In this document: one piece after another, positions 3,569-64,000 of the stretch | How positions within the stretch are numbered: the stretch's first letter is position 1 | How the letters are laid out: each line of letters starts with the position of its first letter | Assembly: GCA_964016885.1 (NCBI GenBank) | Contig: OZ024766.1 | Span: forward strand, 15,748,001-15,812,000 | Reading direction: 5' to 3' | DNA length: 64,000 bases | From: Eledone cirrhosa | Lineage: Eukaryota | Program-made: the position numbers and the translations under genes | The notes under the pieces: model-generated | Told to the model about the DNA's origin: nothing | The model's database searches: none | What the model saw: the letters and a program-made list of their open reading frames with translations, nothing else

Positions 3569-3576
3569 GAGTTTAT

Positions 3577-8684: not shown

Positions 8685-10360
8685 AGTATTTTCTCTCAGA
8701 TCCCTTATCGTCCGGTCCAAAGCTTTAATTGCTCGTTTATAGTTCATGCTGGGGTCATTCCAAATTATCATCTTCCATGTTTGCAGAAGCTTAACCCTTG
8801 GATGAGTTCTTCTTGATGTTGCAAAAAGATTTGTCATGCCATGTAAGGCCTATGGGCCACTTAAGCATGGAGTGTGCAGTCCTGCCTCCATTCAGAAGTG
8901 CTGCTATAATACCTCCCGAAAACACGGCAAGGGAAATATGTTATTTTGGTGAACTTTTGCAAGCAGGAGGTTCATGAGGAATGTCTTCCTGTGCCAAGCA
9001 GGAGCATCGATGAAGAAAAGTCCTCCCCTGTCATTTTGAATGTTTTTCATGATGTTGTGGTCGGCATATTTCTGGTCATCCACCAGTCAAGGTTTATTTT
9101 CATCCACAAACTTACGCAACACTTCAATATCATGGTTTGTCTCCTGGAAAACTGATTGTGTTACATCAATTTCTTCTGGCTCTGGCTTCCTGCATTGTTA
9201 TTCATCGCTGGAATTCAATGGGACAGGTTGCACAGAGGTTGATTGTAAATCCTGGAGGTAGATTCCACATAAATATTGCTATAACATCTTTGGGCTAGGT
9301 GTAGATAGTCGTCTGACATATTGTTTTTGTACTCCTGCCAGGGTAGATGAGATTTATTCCACATGCTGTGAGTATAGTAGCAAACAACTGTCTTATTTAA
9401 CTGGCCCCTCCAGTGACTGCTCCTTCTAGTCCCTTCTTCCAATGTCAGTTGTCATACAGGTGTCCATGGCTGTCTTATTTAACTGGCTACTCCAGTGACT
9501 GCTCCTTCTAGTCCCTTCTTCCAATGTCAGTTGTCATACAGGTGTCCATGGCTGTCTTATTTAACTGGCCCCTCCAGTGACTGCTCCTTCTAGTCCCTTC
9601 TTCCAATGTCAGTTGTCATACAGGTGTCCATGGCTGTCTTATTTAACTGGCTACTCCAGTGACTGCTCCTTCTAGTCCCTTCTTCCAATGTCAGTTGTCA
9701 TACAGGTGTCCATGACTGTCTTATTTAACTGGCTACTCCAGTGACTGCTCCTTCTAGTCCCTTCTTCCAATGTCAGTTGTCATACAGGAGTCCATGGCTG
9801 TCTTATTTACCTGGCTACTCCAGTGACTGCTCCCGCTAGTCCCTTCTTCCAATGTCAGTTGTCATACAGGAGTCCATGGCTGTCTTATTTAACTGACTAC
9901 TCCAGTGACTGCTCCTTCTTGTCTCTTCTTCCAATGTCGATTGCCATGCAGGAGTTGATGTTCTTTAGATGCTTCTTGGTATGTGCTGCACTCTTCCACC
10001 AAATCACCTGAGATCCTCAAATGACGTTGGTCCTTGAACAATATGCAGAAGTGGCTGTAAATAAAAACTCTCTCTGTTGTTGGGGTGGTCATTGTAAACA
10101 TGCCCAATAGCATCACTTTCCTTGACTTCATCACCTTCCACTAAATGACCCTGCTTCCTTTGATTCCAAGTCTTACAATTGGTCCAGGTGTAGTATTTTG
10201 GGATGTCAGCATATAGGAGGGATCGAACAAATTCTTTATTCTGGCAGTGTTTCAAAAAAGCAGTTAGAGTAGTGTCAGGTGGTGCTGGTGTCAACTGATG
10301 AGCAGTGGTTTCAGTGAAGTACACACTCTGTCCATTTTCTATATGTATAGAGATAAGGAT
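8685..10360 (-). mobile_element. Decayed Helitron Rep/PIF1-helicase fragment (longest copy), interrupted by the 82-bp satellite
   Basis: Minus-strand peptides HIENGQSVYFT..PPDTTLTAF..LLYADIPKYYTW..RKQG..HPNNRESFYL.PLLHIVQGPTSFEDLR; IRQLFATILTAC; WQEYKNNMSDD; GGLFFIDAPAWHRKTFLMNLLLA (degenerate Walker A); LLNGGRTAHS; KALDRTIRDLR, in RepHel order; frameshifts and stops present. Confidence 0.88.
9388..9954. repeat. 82-bp satellite array 1 (~7 copies)
   Basis: Unit CATGGCTGTCTTATTTAACTGGCTACTCCAGTGACTGCTCCTTCTAGTCCCTTCTTCCAATGTCAGTTGTCATACAGGTGTC. Confidence 0.95.
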
Positions 10361-10367
10361 GAAAATC

Positions 10368-10560
10368 AAAGTTAATCCCTCAGAGGTTAGCTTTGCCTTT
10401 CATCCCTACGGGGTCGATAAAATAAAGTACCAGTAATGTACTGGAGTATGGCTGGCCTTGTGCCTAATGTAGAAACAATTATTACGGGGTCGATAAAATA
10501 AAGTACCAGTAATTCACTGGGGTATTTACTGGCCTTGTGCCAAAATTAGAAACAATTATC
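10368..10560 (+). mobile_element. SINE 3' half (Meta-domain-like) with ~76-bp tail unit in tandem (2 copies here; 3 at ~18490-18760, 2 at ~36580-36772, 1 at ~52320-52433, 5 at ~63176-63590)
   Basis: GAGGTTAGCTTTGCCTTTCATCCCTACGGGGTCGATAAAATAAAGTACCAGT, same as the 3' half of the intronic SINE at 11956-12132. Confidence 0.7.
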
Positions 10561-10599
10561 ACATTTCTTTTTAATAAATCACATCACTATATAATTAAA

Positions 10600-10712
10600 T
10601 ACGACTGGAAATGTGCCTGAAGGTACGAAATTATGTCAGGGACTTTTCACGTTTGACACCGCACGAGAGTCGAGACATTCGCTAAGACACCGAGTACCTG
10701 CTGTCTTCGTTA
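10600..10712 (+). promoter_or_regulatory. Candidate ZNF promoter (CpG-containing patch), repeated at ~18798, ~36812, ~52473 and ~63627
   Basis: CpG-rich non-repeat patch in otherwise AT-rich DNA, ~500 bp upstream of a conserved splice donor; inference only, no transcript data. Confidence 0.35.
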
Positions 10713-11305
10713 TAACTTTAATTAATCTAATTATATCTTGTGTAACAATTATATATATATACACACACACAATTTTAATTCCCCGACATCAGTCTTACAC
10801 TGTCATATCTATTCTTACTTTACAATTGTGTCTACTAAGAGTTCCATTACAATCTGTAGTAGTAAAACTACTATTTCACCAGAACATCTGCTATCAGTCA
10901 TTTATAGACAATATATATATTTTAGACCACATATCAACCTAATATATATATATTTCCTATCTAATCTGTAGCTAAAGACATAAAGTCAGCCTCACTACTT
11001 CATTCTGACAAGATATCAATTTATGACTAAAGATGAAGAAGATACACCAACGTTAATGTCGTGAAATAAAGCTGATAACATTGAAACTTCTAATTTGATA
11101 ACAAAGAGATTATTTCTTTGGTTGTTTAGTAACAACTAACAACACAATACATTGATTATATGTGAAGGAGGTAAGTTGACAAAGATTTACTTAATGTCTA
11201 TATTAATGTGTGTAAATAATATAATTATGTGACCCCTACAACGCACCAGTAATTAACCAGATTCCACTGTTACATGTGATATAAAATATATTGTTATCAT
11301 GATTC

Positions 11306-11643
11306 TTTATTATTTAAATTACCTCCGTCTATTTAATTATCTTGTTCACTACCTTACATTATAAAATATAGTTTATATTTAGCTGTACCTTGTTGTTGTT
11401 TGAAGTAAATTAAAGATATATTTATTATTTAAATTACCTCCGTCTATTTAATTATCTTGTTCACTACCTTGCATTATAAAATACAGTTTATATTTAGCTG
11501 TACCTTGTCATTGCTTTAAGTAAATTAAAGATATATTTATTATTTAAATTACCTCCGTCTATTTAATTATGTGGTTCACTACCTTACATTATAAAATATA
11601 GTTTATATTTAGCTGTACCTTGTTGTTGCTTTAAGTAAATTAA
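11306..11643. repeat. 115-bp AT-rich intronic VNTR (3 copies; 2 at ~19503-19725, 6 at ~37511-38193, 5 at ~53176-53738)
   Basis: ACCTCCGTCT marker at 11321, 11436, 11551; and at 37526, 37641, 37756, 37871, 37986, 38101. Confidence 0.92.
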
Positions 11644-11955
11644 TATTTTGTGGATTTTAGTCTAAACCTCTTACAATTTAATTAACTTCATCTACTTATG
11701 GTTGAACATTACTTTATTGTGTGTTTCATTTCATTATAATTATGTCTGAGTTAGCCAGCCAAGTAGAGGTTGAGTATCTGTATTTCAGGGCACTGCTTTG
11801 ATGGTGAAGGGACATCTGTTGGTGTGGGATCTCGGTGGCTGTACATACTAAGGTTCTAATACTCTAAAGAGCTAGCTGAATAACCGTCTGATACATGTCT
11901 TGTATACAGGATCATAAAGCCATGTATAGAAGAGCAGTCAGGATTAACATTCATA

Positions 11956-12132
11956 GTGAAGTGGCAGCATCGGTAGAGAGTCGGACACCATGCTTTGAGG
12001 CACAGAGTTACGTCCCTTTGTGATCTGAGTTCACATCCAGCCGAGGTTAACTTTGCCTTACATCCATACAGGGTCGATAAAATAAAGTACCAGTAATGTA
12101 CTGGCCTTGTGTTTAAAATAGAAACAATTATA
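11956..12132 (+). mobile_element. tRNA-derived SINE with Meta-like domain (also ~20048-20235, ~38516-38703, ~54061-54248)
   Basis: A box TGGCAG(C/T)ATCGG, B box GAGTTCA(A/C)ATCC, then GCCGAGGTTAACTTTGCCTTACATCCATAC.GGGTCGATAAAATAAAGTACCAGT. Confidence 0.75.
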
Positions 12133-12229
12133 GTGAATAATTTGGAGTGTAGTCTGGTGTCCACCAGGGCTCTGTTCTTAGCCCTCACTTAGTTATTATC
12201 GTCCTGCAGCCTATAACAGAGATGTTTAA

Positions 12230-12815
12230 GACTGGCTGCCCATGGTAACTCCTGTATGCCCAGCAGGTCCTGAAGAATGCGATCATGTGCATTTTCCAGG
12301 TCTATAAAACGATAATATATACCTCTTAGCAATACTCCCACGATTTCTCAAAGACGTGCCACAGTGAGAATATTTGGTGGGTTATGTTGCACCCAGGGAG
12401 AAAACAGCACTGTCCATCAGCTAGCTTCGACTCGCTACATCACTTTGCCAGAAACTTAGCATATACTTTACCATGGAGTCTTAACAAGGTGATCCCTCTC
12501 TATTTGGAACAATCTCTCGTGTCTCCCTTTTTATAAATTGGGATTATTACTCCCGAGTGCCATTTCAGAGACCCAGGCCACCTGACACACATGAGTCGGT
12601 CACATTTGAGCTCTTTAATTGCTCTTGTGACCTCAGCCTCCGAGAGATTAGTCACCGCTATCAGATTCACCTCATGTACATCCGAAGATGCTGTTGTGAT
12701 CGGGTTTGGGAGATCAGCAAAGTATTCTCTCCACCTCATGAGGATCCATCTCTCTGAAGAGAAAAGAACCCCAGATGCACTCATGGTTGCAGGTGTGGAG
12801 GAAGATTTCTTGTAA
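12230..12815 (-). mobile_element. Old RTE-like LINE ORF fragment, linker and RT N-terminus (also ~20330-20933, ~38800-39401, ~54345-54944)
   Basis: RWREYFADL, EAEVTRAIKELK, GVIIPIYKKGDTRDCSK followed by RGITLLRL..KVYAK; frameshifted. Confidence 0.8.
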
Positions 12816-12972
12816 CTAATTAAAAATTAAAATAATTTCATTTTTCAATAAAAAGTTTCCAGGGTTTATAGATGTGAAATTTCCACTGTTTAATCTATCT
12901 CTGCTTCTTAAGTATTCTCTATTATCTCATACTGTTTCTTTTTCATTTCAGAATATCAGATGACATTGGGAT

Positions 12973-13206
12973 AAATTATTATTTTCAATCTTGGATACAT
13001 CACCTCTATTTATCATCATTTGAAGATTAAAACTTTTTAAACGGAACTTATATAACACTGTTTATATAAATCTATCAGAATTACTGTGAAAATTATTATT
13101 TTCAATGTTGGATACATCACCTTTATTTATCATCATTTGAAGATTAAAACTTTTTAAACAGAACTTATATAACACTGTTTATACAAATCTATCAGAATTA
13201 CTGTGA
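12973..13206. repeat. 117-bp tandem duplication in the predicted 5' UTR, private to gene 1
   Basis: TTGGATACATCACC at 12991 and 13108; single copy in the other three genes. Confidence 0.9.
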
Positions 13207-13406
13207 TATATTTCCTCAGAACTGAGTTTAAAGACAAAATTTCTTTTCTTCACTGTGTGGTGTATATATGAGAGATATATTTTGTATTTTAACTCAACTT
13301 CAATGACAAAGAAGTTTGCATCATCTTCAGGTATTAACTGAGATCATAATTGAGGGAAATATAACAAAAGAAATATTTTTTAGGAATATAATATGAAAAA
13401 TATTAA

Positions 13407-14558
<1,152 letters not shown>

Positions 14559-15075
14559 CAAAGTCATATCTCATTGTCTCAAAATTGTAAATTAATTTGA
14601 CACAAATACATTCATATGAGTGAGAAGCTATACCACCGTGATATTGTGGAGAAATTATTCTCTTGTATTGCTACATTAACTACATACAAACATAAATATC
14701 TACTGAAGAAAAGCCATATCACTGTGATATCTGTGGAAATTGTTATCTATAAAAGCTAGCTTAACTAGACACAAACATATATATACAGGAGAGAAACTAT
14801 ATCACTGTGATATCTGTGGGAAATCATTCTCTGAAATAAGTCACTTCACTCAGCACTAACATTTACAGAAAAGGAACCATATCATTGTGATATCTGCAGT
14901 AAATCATTCTCTAAATGTGGCTTCACTAGACACTAACATATACAGGAGAGGAACTATATCACTGTGATGTCTGGTAAATCCTTCTCTAAATGTTGAGAAT
15001 TCCCTACACACTAACATATACAGGAGAGGAACCATATCACTGTGTTGTCTGTGGTAAATCATTTTCTAAATGTTG
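14559..15075 (+). pseudogene. ~6 decayed zinc-finger relics in the 3' UTR (equivalents 23142-23740, 56823-57340; shortened at ~41450-41565)
   Basis: Recurrent CCATATCACTGTGATATCTGTGG / ACATATACAGGAGAG.AACC motifs with stops and indels. Confidence 0.85.
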
Positions 15076-15178
15076 TGGTACCAACATAAGGTTACTTAAT
15101 GTAACAGAAACACAATCAGACAAGATAAAAACCATATCACTCACCCAAAATAGTGCCACCAATGTTGTTAATGTTTTG

Positions 15179-15184
15179 AATAAA
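15179..15184 (+). terminator. Candidate polyadenylation signal AATAAA (also 23843, 41665, 57445)
   Basis: Conserved in all four genes, followed by T/GT-rich sequence. Confidence 0.5.
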
Positions 15185-15519
15185 ACTTGTTTGTTCTGAA
15201 ATTATTCTCCTTTCATTTTATTAGTAGAAGTTGTAACCAAGACTTATGCTGACAAATCTGTATGGTACAGAATTTACAAACACTGTATATATATATATAT
15301 ATGTGCCAAAACATCTATGATCTCGGTTTACAGCTGATGAAGGGTTTATTTTCTCCTTTCATCCATATTACCATCTCAAACTTTGTTTACAGTAACCACA
15401 CAGCTCCTTTCGTTTCTTAGAATTTTATATATATATATATAACAAAGGAAGTGTGGTAAAGAACCAGATGGACCATATACACACCAGAGTACTCAATACT
15501 TAGGGTAGTAGAGCGGGTA

Positions 15520-15642
15520 ATAGGAAAATGTTTAACCCCGACGGCAGAGCTCAAACCGTTTCGACGGCTATTTCTGGAAACAGTCCAGACATAACCGTCG
15601 AAATGGCTTGAGCTCTGCCGTCAGGGTTAAAGATTTGCCTAT
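15520..15642. repeat. ~123-bp fold-back palindrome (MITE-like); copies at 24192-24314, 43213-43335, 57782-57904
   Basis: ATAGGAAAATGTTTAACCCCGACGGCAGAGCTCAA ... TTGAGCTCTGCCGTC(A/G)GGGTTAAA.ATTT.CCTAT, ~59-bp arms, 5-nt loop. Confidence 0.88.
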
Positions 15643-15958
15643 ATATATATATGTATGAGTGTATATTTCAGTGTGTAGAAATTTCTGTCCATGAAAATGA
15701 TTATCTTTATTTGTGTATATGTGTGTGTGTATATGTATATGTATGTTTATATGTGTTCTTATATACATGTGTGCACATCTTGAAATATTTTCAGTGTCTG
15801 TTCTAGTTCTCAGAGTACAAATCCCACTGAGGTAAAGTTGCTTCGATATTTTGAGGTCAATAAATGAAATACCAGTGAAATACTGGGGTGGTTAATTCCT
15901 CTTCTTTGTCATTGTCTGTTTGTCTACTCTTCTCTTTCTCTGTATTTATATATATATA

Positions 15959-16154
15959 TCCAAAATTAAGATAAATTAAAATAAAATTAATGTAAATCAA
16001 ATTATGGGAGTCATGCCAGAAAGACATGTGACATATCACCCGTAAAATAAGCTCCATGGAGCTTATTTTATGGGTGATATGGTGCATGTCTTTCTGGCAT
16101 TACACCCATAATTTGATTTAGATTAATTTTATTTTAATTTATCTTAATTTTGGA
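15959..16154. mobile_element. ~196-bp spacer-less palindrome (MITE-like) inserted in (TA)n; copies at 24639-24828, 43654-43826, 47692-47881, 58214-58409
   Basis: TCCAAAATTAAGATAAAT ... ATTTATCTTAATTTTGGA, symmetric about AAGCTCCA|TGGAGCTT; (TA)n on both sides. Confidence 0.88.
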
Positions 16155-16609
16155 TATATATATATATAAATAGGGCCTCTTAATTGTAGAGCTAACTCTG
16201 TTGAAAGGACCTGACTGCTGTTTCTAGTTGTCAATAACCCTATTCACGCAACTGGGACGAAGCTGGTATGATGTGTGTATTTTTAGTAGATACAGCACGT
16301 GTTACTGGTCAGTCGCTGATTTGAACTTGATGCGTAAACACAGATGGTTGGACTTCTTCCTTGTTGAGAATCCAAGATCTGGCTACTGTCGTTTACCAAT
16401 CGATTAATTGGTGAAATATATTTCTTTAATGGAATATATACAAGGAAGATTAATCATTTTCTAAGGTATCTATTTTTGAAGTTCTAGTTAAATTTATTTT
16501 GTTACCTACCTAGCTATGTGTGCTTACACACTTTTACAAATTATCCCCTGTGATTGTTTCATATGTTTATTTATATGTCAATCAATTTCTAGTTGATACA
16601 TATATATAT

Positions 16610-18072
16610 CCATGGCTGTCTTATTTAACTGACTACTCCAGTGACTGCTCCTTCTAGTCTCTTCTTCCAATGTCAGTTCTCATACAGGTGTCCATGGCTG
16701 TCTTATTTAACTGGCTACTCCAGTGACTGCCCCTTCTAGTCTCTTCTTCCAATGTCAGTTGTCATACAGGTGTCCATGGCTGTCTTATTTAACTGGCTAC
16801 TCCAGTGACTGCTCCATCTAGTCCCTTCTTCCAATGTTAGTTGTCATACAGGTGTCCATGGCTGTCTTATTTAACTAGCTACTCCAGTGACTGCTCCTTC
16901 TAGTCCCTTCTTCCAATGTCAGTTGTCATACAGGTGTCCATGGCCATATTATTTAACTGGCTACTCCAGTGTCTGCTCCTTCTAGTCCCTTCTTCCAATG
17001 TCAATTGTCATACAGGTGTCCATGGCTGTCTTATTTAACTGGCTACTCCAGTGACTGCTCCTTCTAGTCTCTTCTTCCAATGTCAGTTGTCATACAGGTG
17101 TCCATGGCTGTCTTATATAACTAGCTACTCCAGTGACTACTCCTAGTCTCTTCCAATGTCAGTTGTCATACAGGAGTCCATGGCTGTCTTATTTAACTGG
17201 CTACTCCAGTGACTGCTCCTTCTAGTCCCTTCTTCCAATCTCAGTTGTCATACAGAAGTCCATGGCTGTCTTATTTAACTGGCTACTCCAGTGACTGCTC
17301 CTTCTAGTCCCTTCTTACATTGTTAGTTGTCATACATGTGTCCATGGCTGTCTTATTTAACTGGCTACTCCAGTGACTGCCCCTTCTAGTCTCTTCTTCC
17401 AATGTCAGTTGTCATACAGGAGTCCATGGCTGTCTTGTTTAACTGGCTACTCCAGTGACTGCTCCTTTTAGTCCCTTCTTCCAATGTCAGTTGTCATACA
17501 GGAGTCCATGGCTATCTTATTTAACTGGCTATTCCAGTGATTGCTCCTAGTCCCTTCTTCCAATGTCAGTTGTCATACAGGTGTCCATGGCTGTCTTATT
17601 TAACTGGCTACTCCAGTGACTGCTCCTTCTAGTCCCTTCTGCCAATGTCAGTTGTCATACAGAAGTTCATGGCTGTCTTATTTAACTGGCTACTCCAGTG
17701 ACTGCTCCTTCTAGTCTCTTCTTCCAATGTCAGTTGTCATACAGGAGTCCATGGCTGTCTTATTTAACTGGCTACTCCAGTGACTGCTCCTTCTAGTCTC
17801 TTCTTCCAATGTCAGTTGTCATACAGGAGTCCATGGCTGTCTTATTTAACTGGCTACTCCAGTGACTGCTCCTTCTAGTCTCTTCTTCCAATGTCAGTTG
17901 TCATACAGAAGTTCATGGCTGTCTTATTTAACTGGCTACTCCAGTGACTGCTCCTTCTAGTCTCTTCTTCCAATCTCAGTTGTCATACAGAAGTCCATGG
18001 CTGTCTTATTTAACTGGCTACTCCAGTGACTGCTCCTTCTAGTCTCTTCTTCCAATATCAATTGCCATGCAG
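16610..18072. repeat. 82-bp satellite array 2 (~18 copies)
   Basis: CATGG at 16611, 16693 ...; joined directly to (TA)n on the left. Confidence 0.96.
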
Positions 18073-18480
18073 AATTTGATGTTCTTTAGATGCTTCTTGT
18101 TATTTGCTGCACTCTTCCACCAAATCACCTGAGATCCTCAATTGACGTTGGTCCTTGAACAATATGCAGAAGTGGCTGTAAATAAAAACTCTCTCTGTTG
18201 TTGGGGTGGTCATTGTAAACATGCCCAATAGCATCACTTGCCTTGACTTCATCACCTTCCACTAAATGACCCTGCTTCCTTTGATTCCAAGTCTTACAAT
18301 TGGTCCAGGTGTAGTATTTTGGGATGTCAGCATATAGGAGGGATCGAAGAAATTCTTTATTCTGGCAGGGTTTCAAAAAAGCAGTTAGAGTAGTGTCAGG
18401 TGGTGCTGGTGTCAACTGATGAGCAGTGGTTTCAGTGAAGTACACACTCTGTCCATTTTCTATATGTATAGAGATAAGGA
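18060..18480 (-). mobile_element. Helitron RepHel fragment (upstream part only)
   Basis: ORF 18125-18490 nearly identical to 10004-10369. Confidence 0.85.
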
Positions 18481-21443: not shown

Positions 21444-23141
21444 ATGGAAAATAAATTGAGTGAAAAGAAGATTAAATGTGAAACAATGTCTAAAGATATG
21501 GCTATTCCAGAAGAGATGTTAAAGGATAGAGGAGAGAAGCCATATCACTGTGATGTTTGCGGTAAATCATTCTCTGAAAGTAGTAAGTTAACTAGTCACA
21601 AACGTATACATACAGTAGAGAAGCCATATCACTGTGATATCTGTGGTGAATCATTCTCTCAAAGTAGTACCTTAACTAGCCACAAACGTACACATACAGG
21701 AGAGAAGCCATATCACTGTGATATCTGTGGTAAATCATTCTTTGTTAATGGTGAATTAACTAGACACAAACATACACATACAGGTGAGAAGCCATATCAC
21801 TGTGATATCTGTGGTGAATCATTCTCTCAAAGTAGTACCTTAACTAGCCACAAACGTACACATACAGGAGAGAAGCCATATCACTGTGATATCTGTGGTA
21901 AATCATTCTCTGGAAGTGGTCATTTAAATAGCCACATGCGTATACATACAGGTGAGAAGCCATATCACTGTGATATCTGTAGTAAATCATTCTCTTTTAG
22001 GAGTAATTTAACTAGCCACGTGCGTATACATATAGGTGACAAACCATATCACTGTGATATCTGTGGTAAATCATTCTCTCGAAGTAGTATATTAACTTGT
22101 CACATCCGTACCCATACAGGTGATAAGCCATATCACTGTGATGTCTGTGGTAAATCATTCTCTCACAGTGATACCTTAACTAGCCACGTACGTACCCATA
22201 CAGGAGACAAACCATATAACTGTGATATCTGTGGTAAATCATTCTCTAAAAGTAGTATATTAACTAACCACATGCTTATACATATAGGTGAGAAACCATA
22301 TTGCTGTGATATCTGTGGTAAATCATTCTTTGTTAATAGTGAATTAACTAGACACAAACGTACACATACAGGTGAGAAGCCATATCACTGTGATATTTGT
22401 GGTAAATCATTCTCTGAAAGTGGTAGCTTAACTAGACACAAACGTATACATACAGGAGAGAAACCATATCACTGTGATATCTGTGGTAAATCATTCTCTC
22501 GAAGTAGTCATTTAACTACACACAAACATATACATACAGGAGAGAAGCCATATCACTGTGATATCTGTGGTAAATCATTCTCTTTTAGTAGTAATTTAAC
22601 TTCTCACATACGTACTCATACAGGAGACAAGCCTTATCACTGTGATATCTGTGGTAAATCATTCTTTGTTAATAGTAATTTAACTAGTCACAAAAGTATA
22701 CATACAGGAGAGAAACCATATCGCTGTGATATCTGTGGTCAATCATTCTCTCTAAGTAGTATATTAACTTATCACATCCGTACCCATACAGGTGACAAGC
22801 CATATCACTGTGATATCTGTGGTAAATCATTCTCTAGAAGTGGTAACTTAACTACACACAAACGTATACATACAGTAGAGAAACCATATCACTGTGATAT
22901 CTGTGGTAAATCATTCTCTTTTAGTAGTAATATAAATTCTCACATACGTACTCATACAGGAGAGAAGCCATATCATTGTCATATCTGTGGTAAATCATTC
23001 TCTCGAAGAAGTTACTTAACTCAGCACTTACGTATCCATACAGGTGAGAAGCCACATCACTGTGATATCTGTGGTAAATCATTCTCTCAATTAAGTAGTT
23101 TAACTAAACACAAATTTACCCATACAGGTAAGAAACCATAA
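21444..23141 (+). CDS. C2H2 zinc-finger protein 2, 565 aa, 19 tandem fingers
   Basis: Intact ORF; same leader and same terminal [16 protein letters not shown] finger as gene 1. Confidence 0.94.
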
Positions 23142-23278
23142 CAAAGTCATATCTCATTGTCTCAAAATTGTAAATTAATTAGACACAAATACATTCATAT
23201 GAGTGAGAAGTCATACAACTGTGATATTGCGGAGAAATTATTCTCTTGTATTGCTACATTAACTACATACAAACATAA

Positions 23279-23413
<135 letters not shown>

Positions 23414-25268: not shown

Positions 25269-25302
<34 letters not shown>

Positions 25303-41117: not shown

Positions 41118-41480
<363 letters not shown>

Positions 41481-44267: not shown

Positions 44268-44298
<31 letters not shown>

Positions 44299-48627: not shown

Positions 48628-48709
48628 TATATATATATATACACGTGGAAAAGTAAAATATAGCAGAACAGACCGTTAAAAGATGTTTATTTAAAATAGC
48701 AACTATGTA

Positions 48710-49293: not shown

Positions 49294-49587
49294 TAATGAA
49301 GACATGACAAATTGTCCTCTCGCTCCCTCTCTCTATATATAGAGAAAAGGTGAAGTTAGAAATAGCACGGAAAATATATTTTAGGGCCTGTTTTATGTTA
49401 TATATCTTTTGATTCGTTAAAGTGACCCTATTGAAAAAATGGGAGAGACATCATCATTCATCATCATTTCATTTCACGTCCACATTTTCCCTGCTTGCAA
49501 GGGTGGTACGGGAACTGATTGTGGCTTGATTTCTAAAGATGGATGCCCTTCCTAACGCCAACCTCATTTACAGTGAGTGCTGGGTGC

Positions 49588-52310: not shown

Positions 52311-55300
52311 GAAAAGCAAAGTTAATCTCTCAGAGGTTAGCTTTGCCTTTCATCCCTACGGGGTCGATAAAATAAAGTACCAGTAATATACTAGGGTAAT
52401 TGCTGGCCTTGTGCCAAAAGTAGAAACAATTATCACATTTCTTTTTAATAAATCACATCACTATAGAATTAAATACGACTGGAAATGTGTGTGAAAGTAC
52501 AAAATTATGTCAGGGACTTTTCACGTTTGACACCGAACGAGAGTCGAAACATTCGCTAAGACACCGAGTACCTGCTGTCTTCGTTATAACTTTAATTAAT
52601 CTAATTATATCTTGTGTAACAATTATATATATATACACACACAATTTTAATTCCCGGACATCAGTCTTACACTGTCATATCTATTCTTACTTTACAATTG
52701 TGTCTACTAAGAGTTCCATTACAATCTGTAGTAGTAAGACTACTATTTCACCAGAACATCTGCTATCAGCCATTTATAGACAATATATATATTTTAGACC
52801 ACATATCAACCTAACATATATATATTTCTATCAAATCTGTAGCTAAAGACATAAAGTCAGCCTCACTACTTCATTCTAACAAGATATCAATTTATGACTA
52901 AAGATGAAGAAGATACACCAACGTTAATGTCGTGAAATAAAGCTGATAACATTGAAACTTCTAATTTGATAACAACGAGATTATTTCTTTGGTTGTTTAG
53001 TAACAACTAACAACACAATACATTGATTATATATGAAGGAGGTAAGTTGACAAAGATTTACTTAATGTCTATATTAATGTGTGTAAATAATATAATTATG
53101 TGACCCCTACAACGCACCAGTAATTAACCAGATTCCACTGTTAAATGTGATATAAAATATATTGTTATGACTGTCTTTATTATTTAAATTACCTCCGTCT
53201 ATTTAATTATCTAGTTCACTACCTTACATTATAAAATATAGTTTATATTTAGCTGTACCTTGTTATTGTTTTAAGTAAATTAAAAATATATTTATTATTT
53301 AAATTACCCCCGTCAATTTAATTATCTTGTTCACTACCTTACATTATAAAATATAGTTTATATTTAGCTGTACCTTGTTATTGCTTTAAGTAAGTGAAAG
53401 ATATATTTATTATTCAAATTACCTCCGTCTATTTAATTATGTGGTTCACTACCTTACATAATGTAATTTATATTTAACTGTACCTTGTTATTGCTTGAAG
53501 TAAGTTAAATATATATTTATTATTTAAATTACCTCCGTCTATTTAATTATCTTGTTCACTACCTTACATTATAAAATATAGTTTATATTTATCTGTACCT
53601 TGTCATTGCTTTAAGTAAATTAAAGATATATTTATTATTTAAATTACCTCCGTCTATTTAATTATGTGGTTCACTACCTTACATTATAAAATATAGTTTA
53701 TATTTAGCTGTACCTTGTTATTGTTTTAAGTAAATTAATATTTTGTCTGTTTTAGTCTAAATCTCTTACAATTTAATTAACTTCATCTACTTATGGTTGA
53801 ACATTACTTTATTGTGGGTTTCATTTCATTATAATTATGTCTGATTAGCCAGCCAAGTAGGGGTTGCGTATCTGTATTTCAGGGAACTGCTTTGATGGTG
53901 AAGGGACATCTGTTGGTGTGGGATCTCGGTGGCTGTACATAATAAGGTTCTAATACTCTAAAGAGCTAGCTGAATAACCGTCTGATACATGTCTTGTATA
54001 GAGGATCATAAAGCCATGTATAGAAGAGCAGTCAGCAATGTCAGGATTAACATTCATTATAGTGAAGTGGCAGTATCGGTAGAGAGTCGGACACCATGCT
54101 TTGAGGCACAGAGTTACGTCCCTTTATGATCTGAGTTCAAATCCCGCCGAGGTTAACTTTGCCTTACATCCATACGGGGTCGATAAAGTAAAGTACCAGT
54201 AATGTACTGGGTAATTGCTGGCCTTGTGTTTAAAATAGAAACAATTATAGTGAATAATTTGGAGTGTAGTCTGGTGTCCACCAGGGCTCTGTTCTTAGCC
54301 CTCACTTAGTTATTATCGTCCTGCAGCCTATAACAGAGATGTTTAAGACTGGCTGCCCATGGTAACTCCTGTATGCTCAGCGGGTCCTGAAGAATGCGGT
54401 CATGTGCATTTTCCAGGTCTATAAAACGATAATATATACCTCTTAGCAATACTCCCACGATTTCTCAAAGAGCTGCCACAGTGTGAATATTTGGTGGGTT
54501 ATGTTGCACCCAGGGAGCAAACAGCACTGTCCATCAGCTAGCTTCGACTCGCTACATCACTTTGCCAGAAACTTTGCATATACTTTACCAGGTAGTCATA
54601 ACAAGGTGATCCCTCTCTATTTGGAACAATCTCTCGTGTGTCCCTTTTTATAAATTGGGATTATCACTCCCGATTGCCTTTGCTTGAGTGCCATTTCAGA
54701 GACCCAGGCCATCTGACACACGAGTCGGTCACATTTGAGCTCTTTAATTGCTCTTGTGACCTCAGCCTCCGAGAGATTAGTCACCGCTATCAGATTCACC
54801 TCATGTACATCCGAAGATGCTGTTGTGATCGGGTTTGGGAGATCAGCAAAGTATTCTCTCCACCTCATGAGGATCCATCTCTCTGAAGAGAAAAGAACCC
54901 CAGATACACTCATGGTTGCAGGTGTGGAGAAAGATTTCTTGTAACTAATTAAAAACTAAAATAATTTGACTTTTCAATAAAAAGTTTCCAGGGTTTATAG
55001 ATGTAAAATTTCCACTGTTAAATCTATCTCTGCTTCTTAAGTATTCTCTATTGTTTCATACTGTTTCTTTTTCATTTCAGAATATCAGATGACATTAGGA
55101 TAAATTATTTTTTTCGATCTTGGATACATCACCTCTATTTATCATCATTTGAAGATTAAAACTTTTTAAACAGAACTTATATAACACTGTTTATATAAAT
55201 CTATCAGAATTACTGTGATATATTTCCTCAGAACTGAGTTTAAAGACAAAATTCCTTTTCTTCACTGTGTTGTATATATATGAGAGATATATCTTGTATT

Positions 55301-55460
55301 TTAACTCAGCTTCAATGACAAAGAAGTTTGCATCATCTTCAGGTATTAACTGAGATCATAATTGAGGGAAATATAACAAAAATAATATTTTTTACGAATA
55401 TAATATAAAAAATATTAAAGAATAACATCTGTAAATTCTGCCAAAGGAAGAAGAATTATT

Positions 55461-56822
55461 ATGGAAAATAAATTGAGGGAAAAGAAGATTAAATGTGAAA
55501 CAATGTCTAAAGATATGGCTATTACAGAAGAGATGTCAAAGGATAGAGGAGAGAAGCCATATCACTGTGATATTTGTGGTAAATCATTCTCTGAAAGTGG
55601 TAACTTAACTAGACACAAACGTATACATACAGAAGAGAAACCATATCACTGTGATATCTGTGGTAAATCATTCTTTGTTAATGGTAATTTAACAAGCCAC
55701 AAACGTACACATACAGGAGAGAAGCCATATCACTGTGATATCTGTGGTAAATCATTCTCTCGAAGTAGTAATTTAACTAGCCACATGCGTATACATACAG
55801 GTGAGAAGCCATATCACTGTGATATCTGTGGTAAATCATTCTTTGTTAATAGTAAATTAACTAGACACAAACGTACACATACAGGAGACAAGCCATATCA
55901 CTGTGATATCTGTGGTAAATCATTCTCTCTAAGTAGTATATTAACTTGTCACATCCGTACCCATACAGGTGACAAGCAATATCACTGTGATATCTGTGGT
56001 AAATCATTCTCTGAAAGTGGTAACTTAACTAGACACAAGCGTATCCATACAGGAGAGAAGCCATATCACTGTGATATCTGTGGTAAATCATTCTCTTTTA
56101 GTAGTAATATAAATTCTCACATACGTACTCATACAGGAGAGAAGCCATATCACTGTGATATCTGTGGTAAATCATTCTTTAATAATATTAGTTTAACTAG
56201 ACACGAACGTACCCATTCAGGAGAGAAGCCATATCACTGTGATATCTGTGGTAAATCATTCTTTGTTAATAGTAATTTAACTAGACACAAAAGTATACAT
56301 ACAGGAGAGAAGCCATATTACTGTGATATCTGTGGTAAATCATTCTCTGAAAGTGGTACCTTAACTAGCCACAAACGTATACATACAGGAGACAAGCCAT
56401 ATCACTGTGATATCTGTGGTAAATCATTCTCTCGAAGAAGTTACTTAACTGAGCACTTACGTATCCATACAGGTGAGAAGCCATATCACTGTGATATCTG
56501 TAGTAAATCATTCTCTGATAGTGGTACCTTAACTAGCCACATACGTATACATACAGGAGAGAAGCCATATCACTGTGATATCTGTAGTAAATCATTCTCT
56601 GAAAGTGGTACCTTAACTAGACACAAACGTATCCATACAGGAGAGAAGCCACATCACTGTGATATCTGTGGTAAATCATTCTCTGAAAGTGGTACCTTAA
56701 CTAGACACAAACGTATCCATACAGGAGAGAAGCCATACCACTGTGATATCTGTGGTATATCATTCTCTCAATTAAGTAGTTTAACTAAACACAAATATAC
56801 CCATACAGGTAAGAAACCATAA
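55461..56822 (+). CDS. C2H2 zinc-finger protein 4, 453 aa, 15 tandem fingers
   Basis: Intact ORF; same leader and terminal finger as genes 1 and 2. Confidence 0.94.
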
Positions 56823-59800
56823 CAGAGTCATATCTCATTGTCTCAAAATTGTAAATTAATTAGACACAAATACATTCATATGAGTGAGAAGCCATACCAC
56901 TGTGGTATTGTGGAGAAATAATTCTCTTGTATTGCTACATTAACTACATACAAACATAAATATATACTGGAGAAAAGCCATATTACTGTGATATCTGTGG
57001 AAATTGTTATCTATAAAAGCTAGCTTAACTAGACACAAACATATATATACAGGAGAGAAACTATATCACTGTGATATCTGTGGGAAATCATTCTCTGAAA
57101 TAAGTCACTTCACTCAGCACTAACATTTACAGAAAAGGAACCATATCATTGTGATATCTGCAGTAAATCATTCTCTAAATGTGGCTTCACTAGACACTAA
57201 CATATACAGGAGAGGAACTATATCACTGTGATGTCTGTGGTAAATCCTTCTCTAAATGTTGAGAATTCCCTACACACTAACATATACAGGAGAGGAACCA
57301 TATCACTGTGTTGTCTATGGTAAATCATTTTCTAAATGTTGTGGTACCAACATAAGGTTACTTAATGTAACAGAAACACAATCAGACAAGATAAAAACCA
57401 TATCACTCACCCAAAATAGTGCCACCAATGTTGTTAATGTTTTGAATAAAACTTGTTTGTTCTGAAATTATTCTCCTCTCATTTTATTAGTAGAAGTTGT
57501 AACCAAGACTTATGCTGACAAATCTGTATGGTACAGAATTTACAAACACTATATATATATATATGTGCCAAAACATCTATGATCTCGGTTTACAGCTGAT
57601 GAAGGGTTTATTTTCTCCTTTCATCCATATTACCATCTCAAACTTTGTTTACAGTAACCACACAGCTCCTTTCGTTTCTTAGAATTTTATATATATATAT
57701 ATAACAAAGGAGGTGTGGTAAAGAACCAGATGGACCATATACACACCAGAGTACTCAATACTTACGGTAGTAGAGCGGGTAATAGGAAAATGTTTAACCC
57801 CGACGGCAGAGCTCAAACCGTTTCGACGGCTATTTCTGGAAACAGTCCAGACATAACCGTCGAAATGGCTTGAGCTCTGCCGTCAGGGTTAAAGGTTTTC
57901 CTATATATATATATGTAAGAGTGTATATTTCAGTGTGTAGAAATTTCTGTCCATGAAAATGATTATCTTTATTTGTGTATATGTGTATATGTAGTTGTAT
58001 GTTTATATGTGTTCTTATATACATGTGTGCACATCTTGAAATATTTTCAGTGTCTGTTCTAGTTCTCAGAGTACAAATCCCACTGAGGTAAAGTTGCTTC
58101 GATATTTTGAGGTCAATAAATGAAATACCAGTGAAATACTGGGGTGGTTAATTCCTCTTCTTTGTCATTGTCTGTTGTCTACTCTTGTCTTTCTCTGTAT
58201 TTATATATATATATCCAAAATTAAGATAAATTAAAATAAAATTAATGTAAATCAAATTATGGGTGTCATGCCAGAAAGACAGGCGCCATATCACTCGTAA
58301 AATAAGCTCCATGGAGCTTATTTTATGGGTGATATGGTGCATGTCTTTCTGGCATGACACCCATAATTTGATATAGAATAATTTTATTTTAATTTATCTT
58401 AATTTTGGATACATATATATATATAAGTACGGTCCCTTAATTGTAGAGCTAACTCTGTTGAAAGGACCTGACTGCTGTTTCTAGTTGTCAATAACTCTAT
58501 TCACGCCACTGGGACAAAGCTGGTATGATGTGTGTATTTTTAGTAGATACAGCACGTGTTACTGGTCAGTCGCTGATTTGAACTTGATGCGTAAACACAG
58601 ATGGTTGGACTTCTTCCTGGTTGAGAATCCAAGATCTGGCTACTGTCGTTTACCAATCGATTAATTGGTGAAATATATTTCTTTAATGGAATATATACAA
58701 GGAAGATTTATCATTTTCTAAGGTATCTATTTTTGAAGTTCTAGTTAAACTTTATTTAGTTACCTACCTAGCAATGTGTGCTTACACACTTTTACAAATT
58801 ATCCCCTGTGATTGTTTCATATGTTTATTTATATTTCAATCAATTTCTAGTTGATATATATATATATATATATCAGTTCAATTCTCAGACCGGGTGATGT
58901 GTTGTTTCCTTGAGCAAGACACTTTATTTCACATTGCTCCAGTTTACTCAGCTGTAGAAATGAAATGATAGGGACTGGGGTCCCTATCATTCCACTTTAA
59001 AGTGGTAGTGGAGGTGCCACGGCAAAAAAGCACCCAGCACTCACTGTAAATGAGGTTGGTGTTAGGAAGGGCATCCAGCTGTAGTATTCAAGCCAGAATC
59101 AGTTCCCGTCTCACCCTTGCAAGCAGGGAAAAATGGACGTAAAATGAAATGATGATGATATATATATATATATACACGTGGAAAAGTAAAATATAGCAGA
59201 ACAGACCGTTAAAAGATGTTTATTTAAAATAGCAACTATGTACATTTCACCTGGATGGGCTTCTCAAGGGTATAAATAACTAAAAAGTGTTCCTTACATG
59301 GCCCAGAATGTGTTTTTAGAGATAAGTTCACGTCAGAGTTCATTCTACGCGAAAAAGCGTGTTTTGATTTTGCAGTAGGTCAAGGGAGGTAACTCTAGCT
59401 GGTGTGAGGGCAGTCTTTCCCGGAAAATTTTTTTATCTGTTAAAAGATATGGTTACAACCCTACCATTGTCGATACGCACAGGGTCAGGTATGCAACGTT
59501 TGTTTGCTGCACCTGCCCGCCTGGGTCACTTGAAGCCATGTCTGGGATACATGGTTAGTTTCATGATTTTTTTTGCAGCACCTGCTATATATATATATAT
59601 GAGCGAGACACGGTCACCCGACCTAACTTGCTTCTACATACGACAAACCCGTCCAACCCATGCTAGCATGGAAGATAGATAATAATCGATGATGATGATA
59701 TCTAGGGATTGTAACATTACCACAACAGAAGTCTGACAAGCTTTTGATTCCAGAGTCAGGCTAGATCAATACAGATCAAACCTTGAGCTGATCGATAGCA

Positions 59801-60120
59801 AAACGTGCTTCACTGCTCAATAAATGTAATGAAGACATGACAAATTGTCCTCTCGCACCCTCTCTCTATATATAGAGAAAAGGTGAAGTTAGAAATAGCA
59901 CGGAAAATATATTTTAGGGCCTGTTTTATGTTATATATCTTTTGATTCGTTAAAGTGACCCTATTGAAAAAATGGGAGAGACATCATCATTCATCATCAT
60001 TTCATTTAACGTCCACATTTTCCCTGCTTGCAAGGGTGGTACGGGAACTGATTGTGGCTTGATTTCTAAAGATGGATGCCCTTCCTAACGCCAACCTCAT
60101 TTACAGTGAGTGCTGGGTGC

Positions 60121-63100
60121 TGTCATGTTGAATGTTTTTCATGTTGTGGTAGGCATATTTCTGGCCATCCACCAGTCAAGGTTTATTTTCATCCACAAAC
60201 TTACGCAACACTTCAATATCATGGTTTGTCTCCTGAAAAAGTGATTGTATTAACTCAATTTCTTCTGGCTCTGGCATCCTACATTGCTATTCATTGTTGG
60301 AATTCAATGGGACAGGTTGCAAAGAGGTTGATTGTAAATCTTGGAGGTAGATTCCACATAAATATTGCTATAACGTCTTTGGGCTAGGTGTAGATAGTCG
60401 TCTGACATATTGTATTTGTGCTCCTGCCAGGGTAGATGAGATTTATTCCACATGCTGTGAGTATAGTAGCAAACAACTGTCTTATTTAACTGGCTACTCC
60501 AGTGACTGCTCCTTCTAGTCTCTCCTTCCAATATCACTTGTCATACAGGTGTCCATGGCTGTCTTATTTAACTGGCTACTCCAGTGACTGCTCCTTCTAG
60601 TCTCTTCTTCCAATGTCAGTTGTCATACAGGTGTCCATGGCTGTCTTATTTAACTGGTTACTCCAGTGACTGCTCCCTCTAGTCCCTTCTTCCAATGTCA
60701 GTTGTCATACAGGAGTCCATGGCTGTCTTATATAACTGGCTACTCCAGTGACTGCTCCCTCTAGTCCCTTCTTCCAATGTCAGTTGTCATACAGGAGTCC
60801 ATGGCTGTCTTATTTAACTGGCTACTCCAGTGACTGCTCCTTCTAATCTCTTCTTCCAATGTCAGTTGTCATACAGGAGTCCATGGCTGTCTTATTTAAC
60901 TGGCTACTCCAGTGACTGCTCCTTCTAGTCCCTTCTTCCAATGTCAGTTGTCATACAGGTGTCCATGGCTGTCTTGTTTAACTGGCTACTCCAGTGACTG
61001 CTCCTTCTAGTCCCTTCTTCCAATGTCAGTTGTCATACAGGTGTCCATGGCTGTCTTGTTTAACTGGCTACTCCAGTGACTGCTCCTTCTAGTCTCTTCT
61101 TCCAATGTCAGTTGTCATACAGGTGTCCATGGCTGTCTTATTTAACTGGCTACTCCAGTGTCTGCTCCTTCTAGTCCCTTCTTCCAATGTCAGTTGTCAT
61201 ACAGGTGTCCATGGCTGTCTTATTTAACTGGCTACTCCAGTGACTGCTCCTTCTAGTCCCTTCTTCCAATGTCAGTTGTCATACAGGTGTCCATGGCTGT
61301 CTTGTTTAACTGGCTACTCCAGTGACTGCTCCTTCTAGTCTCTTCTTCCAATGTCAGTTGTCATACAGGTGTCCATGGCTGTCTTATTTAACTGGCTACT
61401 CCAGTGTCTGCTCCTTCTAGTCCCTTCTTCCAATGTCAGTTGTCATACAGGTGTCCATGGCTGTCTTATTTAACTGGCTACTCCAGTGACTGCTCCTTCT
61501 AGTCCCTTCTTCCAATGTCAGTTGTCATACAGGTGTCCATGGCTGTCTTGTTTAACTGGCTACTCCAGTGACTGCTCCTTCTAGTCTCTTCTTCCAATGT
61601 CAGTTGTCATACAGGTGTCCATGGCTGTCTTATTTAACTGGCTACTCCAGTGTCTGCTCCTTCTAGTCCCTTCTTCCAATGTCAGTTGTCATACAGGTGT
61701 CCATGGCTGTCTTATTTAACTGGCTACTCCAGTGACTGCTCCTTCTAGTCTCTTCTTCCAATGTCAATTGTCATACAGGAGTCCATGACTGTTTTATTTA
61801 ACTGGCTACTCCAGTGACTGCTCCTTCTAGTCTCTTCCAATGTCAGTTGTCATACAGGTGTCCATGGCTGTCTTGTTTAACTGGCTACTCCAGTGACTGC
61901 TCCTTCTAGTCTCTTCTTCCAATGTCAGTTGTCATACAGGTGTCCATGGCTGTCTTATTTAACTGGCTACTCCAGTGACTGCTCCTTCTAGTCTCTTCTT
62001 CCAATGTCAGTTGTCATACAGGTGTCCATGGCTGTCTTATTTAACTGGCTACTCCAATGACTGCTCCTTCTAGTCTCTTCTTCCAATGTCAATTGTCATA
62101 CAGGTGTCCATGGCCATCTTATTTAACTGGCTACTACAGTGACTACTCCTTCTAGACCCTTCTTCCAATGTCAGTTGTCATACAGGATTCCATGGCTGTC
62201 TTATTTAACTGGCTACTCCAGTGACTGCTCCTTCTCGTCTCTTCTTCCAATGTCAGTTGTCATACGGGTGTCCATGGCTGTCTTATTTAACTGGCTACTC
62301 CAGTGACTGCTCCTTCTAGTCTCTTCTTCCAATGTCAGTTGTCATACAGGTGTCCATGGCTGTCTTATTTAACTGGCTACTCCAATGACTGCTCCTTCTA
62401 GTCTCTTCTTCCAATGTCAATTGTCATACAGGTGTCCATGGCCATCTTATTTCACTGGCTACTACAGTGACTACTCCTTCTAGACCCTTCTTCCAATGTC
62501 AGTTGTCATACAGGATTCCATGGCTGTCTTATTTAACTGGCTACTCCAGTGACTGCTCCTTCTCGTCTCTTCTTCCAATGTCAGTTGTCATACGGGTGTC
62601 CATGGCTGTCTTATTTAACTGGCTACTACAGTGACTGCTCCTTCTAGTCCCTTCTTCCAATGTCAGTTGTCATACAGGAGTCCATGGCTGTCTTATTTAA
62701 CTGGCTACTCCAGTGACTGCCCCTTCTTGTCTCTTCTTCCAATGTCAATTGCCATGCAGGAGTTGATGTTCTTTAAATGCTTCTTGATATGTGCTGCACT
62801 CTTCCTCCAAATCACCTGAGATCCTCAAATGACGTTGGTCCTTGAACAATAAGCAGAAGTGGCTGTAAATAAAAACTCTCTCTGTTGTTGGGGTGGTCAT
62901 TGTAAACATGCCCAATAGCATCACTTGCCTTGACTTCATCACCTTCCACTAAATGACCCTGCTTCCTTTGATTCCAAGTCTTACAATTGGTCCAGGTGTA
63001 GTATTTTGGGATGTCAGCATATAGGAGGGATCGAAGAAATTCTTTATTCTGGCAGTGTTTCAAAAAAGCAGTTAGAGTAGTGTCAGGTGGTGCTGGTGTC

Positions 63101-63168
63101 AACTGATGAGAAGTGGTTTCAGTGAAGTACACACTCTGTCCATTTTCTATATGTATAGAGATAAGGAT
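60121..63168 (-). mobile_element. Helitron RepHel fragment split by satellite
   Basis: ORFs 60304-60537 and 62812-63177 homologous to cassette 1. Confidence 0.85.
60477..62762. repeat. 82-bp satellite array 6 (~28 copies)
   Basis: 82-bp period. Confidence 0.96.
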
Positions 63169-64000
63169 GAAAAGCAAAGTTAATCTCTCAGAGGTTAGCT
63201 TTGCCTTTCATCCCTACGGGGTCGATAAAATAAAGTACCAGTAATACACTGGGGTAATTGCTGGCCTTGTGCCTAAAGTAGAAACAATTTTTACGGGGTC
63301 GATAAAATAAAGTACCAGTAATACACTGGAGTAATTGCTGGCCTTGTGGCTGAAGTAGAAACAGTTATTATGGGGTTGATAAAATAAAGTACCAGTAATT
63401 CACTGGGGTTATTTGCTGGCCTTGTGCCTAAAGTAGAAACAGTTATTACGGGGTTGACAAAATAAACTACCAGTAATACACTGATTTATTTACTGGCCTT
63501 GTGCCCAAAGTAGAAACAGTTATTACCTGGCTGATAAAATATAGTACCAGTAATTACTGGCCTTGTGTTAAAAGTAGAAACAATTATCACATTTCTTTTT
63601 AATATATCACATCACTATAGAATTAAATACGACTGGAAATGTGTGAAGGTATTAAATTATGTCAGGGACTTTTAACGTTTGACACCGGTACGAGAGTTGA
63701 TACATTCGCTAAGACACCGAATACCTGCTGTCTTCGTTATAACTTTAATTAATCTAATTATATCTTGTGTAACAATTATATATATATATACACACACACA
63801 ATTTTAATTCCCCGACATCAGTCTTACACTGTCATATCTATTCTTACTTTACAATTGTGTCTACTAAGAGTTCCATTACAATCTGTAGTAGTAAAACTAC
63901 TATTTCACCAGAACATCTGCGCTCAGTCATTTATAGACAATATATATATTTTAGACCACATATCAACCTAATATATATATATTTCCTATCAAATCTGTAG

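Follow-up and report, generated by a model that had tools for sequence, protein, structure and literature searches.

We found that the six zinc-finger cassettes at the left end of a 1.09-Mb array in Eledone cirrhosa belong to a young tandem family of 95 finger-only genes, whose finger arrays are reshuffled and probably selected for new specificities against fast-changing targets, likely transposable elements (TEs). The array is an effector-less, macrosatellite-like counterpart of young KRAB-ZNF clusters; it works like one and is not one. The window, by which we mean the whole stretch of 64,000 nucleotides that was analysed (contig OZ024766.1, positions 15,748,001 to 15,812,000), covers its first six units.

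The history of the array may be reconstructed as follows. A member of the family would have landed beside a dead Helitron, and a unit of about 10 kb holding the gene and the relics would have been duplicated head-to-tail, an order of events that we infer from the observed architecture. Unequal exchange of single units and of multi-unit blocks would have expanded the array, and one inversion would have produced its two arms. Out-of-register exchange inside the 84-bp finger repeat would have created chimeric, longer and shorter arrays from one pool, products that we do observe, and selection for new DNA-binding specificities would have acted on them. The transposon relics, like the satellite of the array itself, would likely be passengers, and the length changes of the satellite, VNTR and SINE-tail arrays are likely passenger effects too.

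We propose TEs as the likeliest targets because of two analogies, each drawn from the accessible parts of the source. Young mouse KZFP clusters show block duplication with TEs as cargo, and several bind ERVs (PMC12575710); predicted motifs of octopus ZNFs are enriched in TE consensuses, in a paper that also gives only 5% of predicted ZNF motifs as matching experiment (PMC10547256). On these analogies the case for TEs would balance about evenly against host-gene regulation and the other candidates taken together. A role of finger diversification in host-gene regulation, for instance in neuronal cell types, rather than in tracking transposons is possible, though we do not think it likely. In coleoids, most of the expanded C2H2 genes are neural, and they fall into different co-expression modules (PMC12513265); the proteins encoded here have no repressor domain. 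However, fast turnover, truncation and loss among copies about 3% apart would fit moving targets better than stable networks, and the accessible text of PMC12513265 treats it as an open question whether cephalopod-type C2H2 expansions serve neural regulation or a TE arms race.

Layout of the array

A sequence-only reading of the window had described six head-to-tail cassettes with conserved scaffolds, with gene truncation and loss side by side. Self-alignment bore this out: six units start between 9028 and 60120 (Table 1), their shared non-repeat scaffolds are mostly 91-99% identical, the ORF of unit 3 is frameshifted and unit 4 has no gene. Unit 1 runs in the order Helitron part B, satellite, Helitron part C, SINE-like tail array, exon 1, VNTR, intron, finger exon and tail. 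Besides the 82-bp satellite, TRF detected 76-77-bp arrays, 115-bp arrays (2.9, 2.0, 6.0 and 4.9 copies) and the 84-bp finger arrays. The tail repeat is very abundant genome-wide, consistent with its label as a putative SINE. A Gypsy label given in the same reading was dropped, the 13 stop-free segments of the candidate insertion having no Pfam hit; the intronic RTE-like relic had no Pfam hit either, and a homologue search with the retroelement fragment of unit 3 returned only unnamed RT/PHD proteins.

Table 1. Features of the six units, in positions of the window
Feature	Position	Strand	Basis or remark
Helitron relic, helicase-side continuation	8676..9027	-	tblastn to the PIF1-type ORF of L136; one copy in 1.26 Mb
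Unit 1	9028..16608	+	self-alignment
82-bp satellite, unit 1	9388..9952	.	TRF, 6.9 copies; tandem duplication of Helitron Rep/helicase coding DNA
Helitron relic part C	9953..10399	-	73% amino-acid identity to sister Helitron L135
76-77-bp tandem array, high-copy SINE-like tail	10408..10562	.	TRF; putative SINE
Non-coding exon 1, unit 1	10800..11170	+	start approximate; donor GAG/GTAAGT at 11170; homologous to the spliced exon of unit 2
115-bp intronic VNTR	11306..11643	.	TRF, 2.9 copies
C2H2 gene 1	13449..14558	+	369 aa, 12 fingers; leader of ~30 aa, no effector domain; exon 2 from 12952, AATAAA at 15179
Unit 2	16609..25652	+	begins at a tail-to-satellite deletion junction seen in 13 array units
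82-bp satellite, unit 2	16609..18072	.	TRF, 18 copies
GT..AG intron, unit 2	19366..21069	+	1704 bp; skipped in 3 contigs of run X4, none of run X1
C2H2 gene 2	21444..23141	+	565 aa, 19 fingers
Unit 3	25653..44664	+	self-alignment
82-bp satellite, unit 3	26013..36165	.	TRF, 124 copies
C2H2 gene 3	39918..41117	+	399 aa, 13 fingers; ended early by a frameshift
Inserted non-LTR retroelement fragment, unit 3	41916..43125	+	PHD plus RT-type C-terminal part
Unit 4, gene-less	44665..49586	+	satellite joined directly to tail; junction in 3 units
82-bp satellite, unit 4	45015..47603	.	TRF, 32 copies
Unit 5	49587..60119	+
82-bp satellite, unit 5	49944..51902	.	TRF, 24 copies
C2H2 gene 4	55461..56822	+	453 aa, 15 fingers
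Unit 6, cut by the window	60120..64000	+	21-finger gene 2.6 kb past the window
82-bp satellite, unit 6	60477..62760	.	TRF, 28 copies

To describe the array we extended the window, in one assembly, by 80 kb on its left side and by 1.12 Mb on its right (1.26 Mb in total). The array is two-armed and inverted and spans 15,757,028-16,843,180 of the contig (1,086,153 bp), with about 1.03 Mb of it beyond the window. In this assembly it counts 95 C2H2 zinc-finger genes of 3–24 fingers each, 52 in plus and 43 in minus orientation, and its arms meet tail-to-tail across a spacer of about 5 kb. There are also 95 satellite blocks, one per unit, of 2-463 monomers each; with about 3310 monomers they make up 25% of the array. 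As a multi-kb unit repeated head-to-tail at a single locus, the array is macrosatellite-like. Its upstream scaffolds differ between copies by a median of 2.9%, and the gene copies lie only 1.6% from their consensus. The leader and the exon 2 scaffold also define a larger family, with members on at least 9 other contigs and in a second array on the same contig.

Part of the copy number might be an assembly artefact, with two haplotypes stitched in tandem, which we regard as doubtful. Multi-unit blocks do recur: a 48-kb block returns 315 kb away with 99.2% identity, and a 5223-bp stretch is present as an exact duplicate. However, some modules are fourfold (genes 8, 25, 32 and 50) and so exceed two alleles, the array contains no N gap, and 51 of the 95 copies remain distinct after de-duplication at 0.7%. 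Given the fourfold modules and the distinct copies, some very close blocks could be haplotype stitching and most of the array cannot be. A weak hint against the artefact comes from run X1, in which array-type contigs have a depth of 356-634 compared with 10-14 for three divergent contigs, depth not being equal to copy number.

Finger exchange and the 82-bp satellite

The genes comprise 75 distinct ORFs with 58 fingerprint arrays and 162 fingerprints, and their 1443 fingers include 475 distinct full-length sequences; distinct fingers differ by 15% on average. The claim of the sequence-only reading that recombination diversifies the fingers held up: of 477 finger sequences, 115 are found in two or more of the 44 gene families and 27 recur inside a single gene, and change is concentrated at positions -1, 2, 3 and 6. 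Runs of 9-11 fingers join differing N- and C-terminal halves, gene 79 for example combining a 91-type start with a 94-type end. Because fingers and finger runs are common to different families, we conclude that recombination reshuffles specificity. All four gametes are present in 511 of the 903 site pairs inside the finger. Sister ORFs share 30 of the 162 fingerprints (44 ORFs, a partial sampling of sister loci with similar leaders), and the closest finger of a sister array lies a median of 8 nt away, compared with 1 nt within the array; judged by sequence comparison, the finger pool is array-specific.

We used site linkage in place of a correlation of distance matrices across the internal arrays, which was rejected as a way to find exchange hotspots because contiguous 170-bp controls gave values as low (0.01-0.55). 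Along the scaffold, linkage falls with distance from an r2 of 0.11 to 0.03. Across the finger array r2 was 0.038 (null 0.027), the lowest of eight neighbouring intervals in the 51 de-duplicated copies, a value that may reflect distance alone because the finger array is 1-2.5 kb long.

The TE relic and the satellite had been proposed as the engine of the cassette. That the 82-bp satellite seeds the amplifying crossovers, or else is the binding target of the fingers, is in our view quite unlikely. Every unit has its block, and the satellite is the fastest-changing part of the array: among 35 near-identical pairs, which are not independent, 28 differ in the satellite, 10 in the VNTR, 7 in the SINE-like tail, 9 in the fingerprints and only 4 in finger number. 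About eight distinct deletion junctions end in the satellite. However, the satellite fills a quarter of the array, and a deletion that ends there leaves the gene intact. The markers flanking the satellite are the most tightly linked of the eight neighbouring intervals (r2 0.128, null 0.033, 51 de-duplicated copies), exceeding even sites less than 100 bp apart (0.114), which argues that the satellite is not an exchange hotspot and probably not the engine; it changes length without swapping its flanks. Its length is also unrelated to finger number (rho = -0.01 over 87 cassettes). The array lengths, claimed to vary independently, did so for this pair and for VNTR and fingers (rho = -0.15), but the other four pairs showed a |rho| of about 0.3, uncorrected for kinship. 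Sister arrays that have other minisatellites and no Helitron satellite diversify in the same manner, with a contact omega of 2.55 (P = 0.001, 178 fingers). Finally, the satellite is present only in this array and is therefore unlikely as the driver, and its monomers, 3.5% from their consensus, would be too uniform a target for 162 fingerprints.

Selection on the genes and origin of the satellite

Frameshifts, stops and zinc-ligand losses are removed by purifying selection. Frameshifts were found in 10 of the 95 ORFs (mean 1398 nt) compared with 84 of 90 upstream 1400-bp flanks, a count that leaves out 5 rearranged copies and ORF lesions past the first stop. The flanks contain 30 distinct frameshift-size indels and 388 substitution alleles; about 21 distinct nonsense alleles would be expected from the latter, and the ORFs have 2 (P = 2e-7). 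A canonical end is retained by 76 of the 95 ORFs, the other 19 showing 10 frameshifts, 3 nonsense changes (2 alleles) and 6 terminal deletions, and one further gene lacks its ATG. The ORF lesions are few and almost all late in the gene, and there are about 6 distinct zinc-ligand substitutions. Gene conversion, however, could also erase lesions without selection.

A codon model on one finger tree gave an omega of 2.2 at the contact positions -1, 2, 3 and 6 (LRT P = 2e-5 against 1) and of 0.65 at the 20 other non-ligand codons, sizes that are only rough because recombination breaks the single-tree assumption and can inflate omega. The four contact positions, which were specified beforehand, rank first to fourth of the 24 non-ligand codons for change, and entropy among the 475 distinct strict full-length fingers peaks at -1, 3, 6 and 2 (degenerate fingers were excluded by the strict pattern and tallied apart). 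In a minimum-spanning network, whose edges are not independent, contact omega was 1.9-2.0 when CpG-type changes were left out, and also on one-step edges only. Transitions alone on short edges gave a weak signal (P = 0.05 and 0.39, the latter for edges of at most two steps).

These data bear on whether the array might be a neutral macrosatellite, with ORFs kept open by youth and homogenisation and with a contact excess that stems from the founder gene or from a method artefact, a reading that we consider very improbable. The copies do lie close to their consensus, the dead Helitron segment is likewise stop-free in most copies, and omega is near 1 at some helix-flanking positions. However, flanks of the same age have collected the indels and substitutions given above and the ORFs have few lesions, contact omega is still 1.9 on one-step edges, and most fingerprints are absent from the sister loci.

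At 8676-10399 the minus strand of the window contains a broken fragment of a Helitron Rep/helicase gene, with stops and frameshifts. It shares up to 73% amino-acid and 83-85% nucleotide identity with sister copies in the genome, and the ORFs of sister Helitrons match Pfam Helitron_like_N and PIF1. Each 82-bp monomer encodes the same 27-28 residues of the Helitron protein, from which we conclude that the satellite arose by tandem duplication within coding DNA that was already dead. All genome-wide matches to the junction 22-mer of the satellite (1474 + 544 = 2018) lie inside the array, a satellite born from transposon coding DNA and grown to about 3300 copies at one locus.

The sequence-only reading had also held that the cassette amplifies itself, which our data do not support. 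The cassette is not dispersed, and relic copies of at least 85% amino-acid identity (150 scored) are all in the array, as are the satellite junction 22-mers; relic matches elsewhere reach at most 80%. The helicase-side continuation, found only at the left end of the array, marks the ancestral flank, and the junction between units falls within helicase-coding sequence, which meets another repeat there via a 6-bp shared word; together these two features indicate that the cassette is not a mobile element. Its broken frames, a junction in coding DNA and the lack of dispersed close copies speak against an active or gene-capturing Helitron. That a Helitron captured the gene and built the array by rolling-circle amplification is thus largely refuted and hardly tenable, since the fragment, although present in nearly every unit and related to Helitrons abundant in the genome, is 15-17% diverged from its sister Helitron and far older than the amplification.

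Transcript, leader and related systems

The genes have two exons, the first non-coding and the second, at the 3' end, carrying all fingers, which are of the Kruppel-type C2H2 class with TGEKP linkers. In the spliced leader, whose exon 1 start was assumed, the only ORFs have 13 codons or fewer; the leader is therefore non-coding and the proteins consist of about 30 residues plus the fingers, with no room for SET, KRAB or SSXRD before the fingers. The 33-aa leader peptide gave no Pfam hit, and neither KRAB nor another effector domain was found in it, in agreement with the earlier view of the genes as KRAB-independent.

Expression had been named as a check, and it was answered for the family. The three contigs of run X4 that skip the intron of unit 2 have a summed depth of 488, and in X4 both exons are deeply covered and most of the intron only thinly. 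The splice sites are kept (donor GT in 91 of 92 copies, acceptor AG in 97 of 97 hits). Compared with unit 2, the exon 1 contig of X4 has 3 differing sites. This difference count and both listed alleles are matched by 16 of 92 array copies, and six sister-locus copies differ at 7-13 sites. A gap of the sister type at the start context has a depth of 0 of about 300 in X4 and of 823 of about 7040 in X1. We conclude that the spliced family transcript in X4 probably includes this array, an assignment that depends on contigs from a single run of unrecorded library type, in a family whose sister loci share the splice sites. The share of 28% of 31-mers in X4 was rejected as an array-specific signal because the sister loci that we retrieved account for 19% by themselves; runs X8 and X19, which come from other organisms and have small shares, were also set aside, as they cover mainly high-copy repeats and the finger start.

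The leader peptide evolves with an omega of 1.03 (53 distinct sequences). Of 129 leaders, a count that leaves out two with a codon deletion, 128 carry an I/V/L/M-K-x-E motif, which we take to be the SUMO consensus. The near-invariant SUMO-type motif makes the leader a tentative candidate for an effector domain, yet 6 of 30 positions are invariant and omega is about 1. Homologue searches with the leader yielded no homologue outside the family and no usable Atlas hit, and whole-protein searches gave only generic C2H2 proteins of 36-66% identity among the 120 matches listed, none of them under an octopus name. The fingers and the SINE-like tail presumably resemble octopus sequences. We also considered that exchange is damped by the satellite and channelled into the fingers, which would make the array a germline diversity generator in which 95 genes draw on a common pool of about 475 finger alleles for an adaptive, KRAB-free silencing of young TEs, perhaps via the IKCE SUMO-type motif of the leader. 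This extension is speculative and seems to us doubtful; if it were true, the tandem arrays of the genome would each form a repertoire of their own that evolves independently. The data do suggest that contact sites can diversify without a KRAB-like or FiNZ-like domain, and hint at some other route by which the fingers would be coupled to chromatin. With 95 traceable young paralogs in about 44 architecture families, clear selection signals and chimeras, the array is a tractable test set.

Vertebrates already provide examples of this overall mode, in which clustered finger genes arise and are lost with repeats as cargo. The literature searched contained no description of this cassette; Albertin 2015, Eichler 1998 and the supplements lay outside its reach and may note satellite-linked C2H2 clusters. 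The following comparisons draw on the accessible parts of the cited papers. Like young mouse KRAB-ZFP clusters (e.g. Chr4), the array shows multi-gene block duplications, TE cargo and fingers in one 3' exon, and its 58 distinct fingerprint arrays compare with 38-47 per mouse cluster; unlike them, it has no KRAB, a uniform 10-kb single-gene cassette and no ERV load, and it is known from sequence alone whereas mouse targets were mapped by ChIP (PMC12575710). In the human 19p12 cluster, too, Kruppel-type genes are interspersed with a satellite, the beta-satellite (PMC3018141, citing Eichler 1998). The satellite of the Eledone array is unrelated to it, Helitron-born in place and private to one array, and our linkage test argues against its driving exchange.

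Zebrafish FiNZ-ZNF genes resemble the array as a KRAB-independent, lineage-specific expansion with positive selection at base-contacting residues, but FiNZ is a conserved domain on its own exon, whereas here exon 1 is non-coding and the leader has an omega of about 1 (PMC10547256). The coleoid C2H2 expansions, of which the array may be part, likewise have huge clustered repertoires in multi-megabase tandem arrays (PMC9068888; PMC12513265); in contrast to those accounts, one array is resolved here to the level of units, finger pool and selection. With the finger minisatellite of PRDM9 the array has in common an 84-bp repeat, contact-residue variation and reshuffling by recombination (PMC8925151). 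Unlike in PRDM9, there is no SET, KRAB or SSXRD, the pool spans 95 paralogs instead of alleles of one gene, and distinct fingers differ by the 15% given above (PMC8925151). The macrosatellites TAF11-like and PRR20 likewise consist of multi-kilobase units in long tandem runs (PMC3018141). Their units are near-identical, whereas the coding core of the Eledone array diversifies while its scaffold stays uniform.

Leader and unit tail

The peptide motif I/V/M-K-C/W-E occurs in the leader of 128 of the 129 sequences (the window and all copies). This motif fits the SUMO consensus; set against the overall conservation of the leader, it was not significant. The spliced non-coding leader, roughly 750 nt long, holds seven short upstream ATG frames of 1-13 codons, which may damp translation. 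A near-perfect, MITE-like palindrome of roughly 220 bp is present in the tails of nearly all units.

Lesions and new C-termini in the finger arrays

The same lesions arise repeatedly at the TG-rich cysteine codons of the finger arrays and are of two kinds: a loss of 2 bp, after which the ORF stops late, and an in-frame loss of 9 bp, which removes one cysteine. These lesions were found in genes 3, 7, 17, 42, 60, 62, 69, 71, 79 and 22, 47, 56, 63, 67, 82. Downstream of the stop codon lie 3-9 frameshifted pseudo-fingers of 80 bp, which are common to the sister loci too. In six genes that have undergone deletions, the ORF runs on into the pseudo-fingers or the tail, resulting in new C-termini.

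Sister loci and surroundings of the main array

This contig carries a second array in which genes of the family are tandemly repeated. It is likewise two-armed, its units measure 7-12 kb, and it has distinct minisatellites of its own, with repeats of 20 bp and 49 bp. Because no match to exon 1 was present in the 120 kb of this array examined, its copies may use a different promoter or a common far-off first exon. On G000:C28, two exon 1 elements stand head-to-head about 0.7 kb apart, each directed toward a family gene at a distance of 7-10 kb, and possibly form a bidirectional promoter.

The inter-arm spacer of the main array contains a 78-bp satellite in both orientations, which recurs at the left edge of the window. 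A diverged C2H2 finger array, with about 65% nucleotide identity to the main-array family, lies 4 kb past the right end. To the left of the cassettes are unrelated tandem arrays of 49-bp, 112-bp (8 copies) and 22-bp (204 copies) repeats.

Positions of the features described (L-numbers denote fetched genome stretches)
Feature	Position	Stretch
Leader motif	window 13476-13487	
Spliced leader	window 18991-19365 joined to 21070-21443	
Tail palindrome	window 15943-16166 and equivalent tails	
Pseudo-fingers	window 14560-15073 and equivalents	
Second array	G000:C27 19.43-20.05 Mb	L121-L128, L137-L140
Head-to-head exon 1 pair	G000:C28 ~46.065-46.068 Mb	L129-L134
Inter-arm spacer	G000:C27:16,392,700-16,398,040	L058-L059
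78-bp satellite, left edge	G000:C27 15,747,248-15,748,105	
Diverged finger array	G000:C27:16,846,860-16,848,450	L104
Unrelated tandem arrays	window 905-8048
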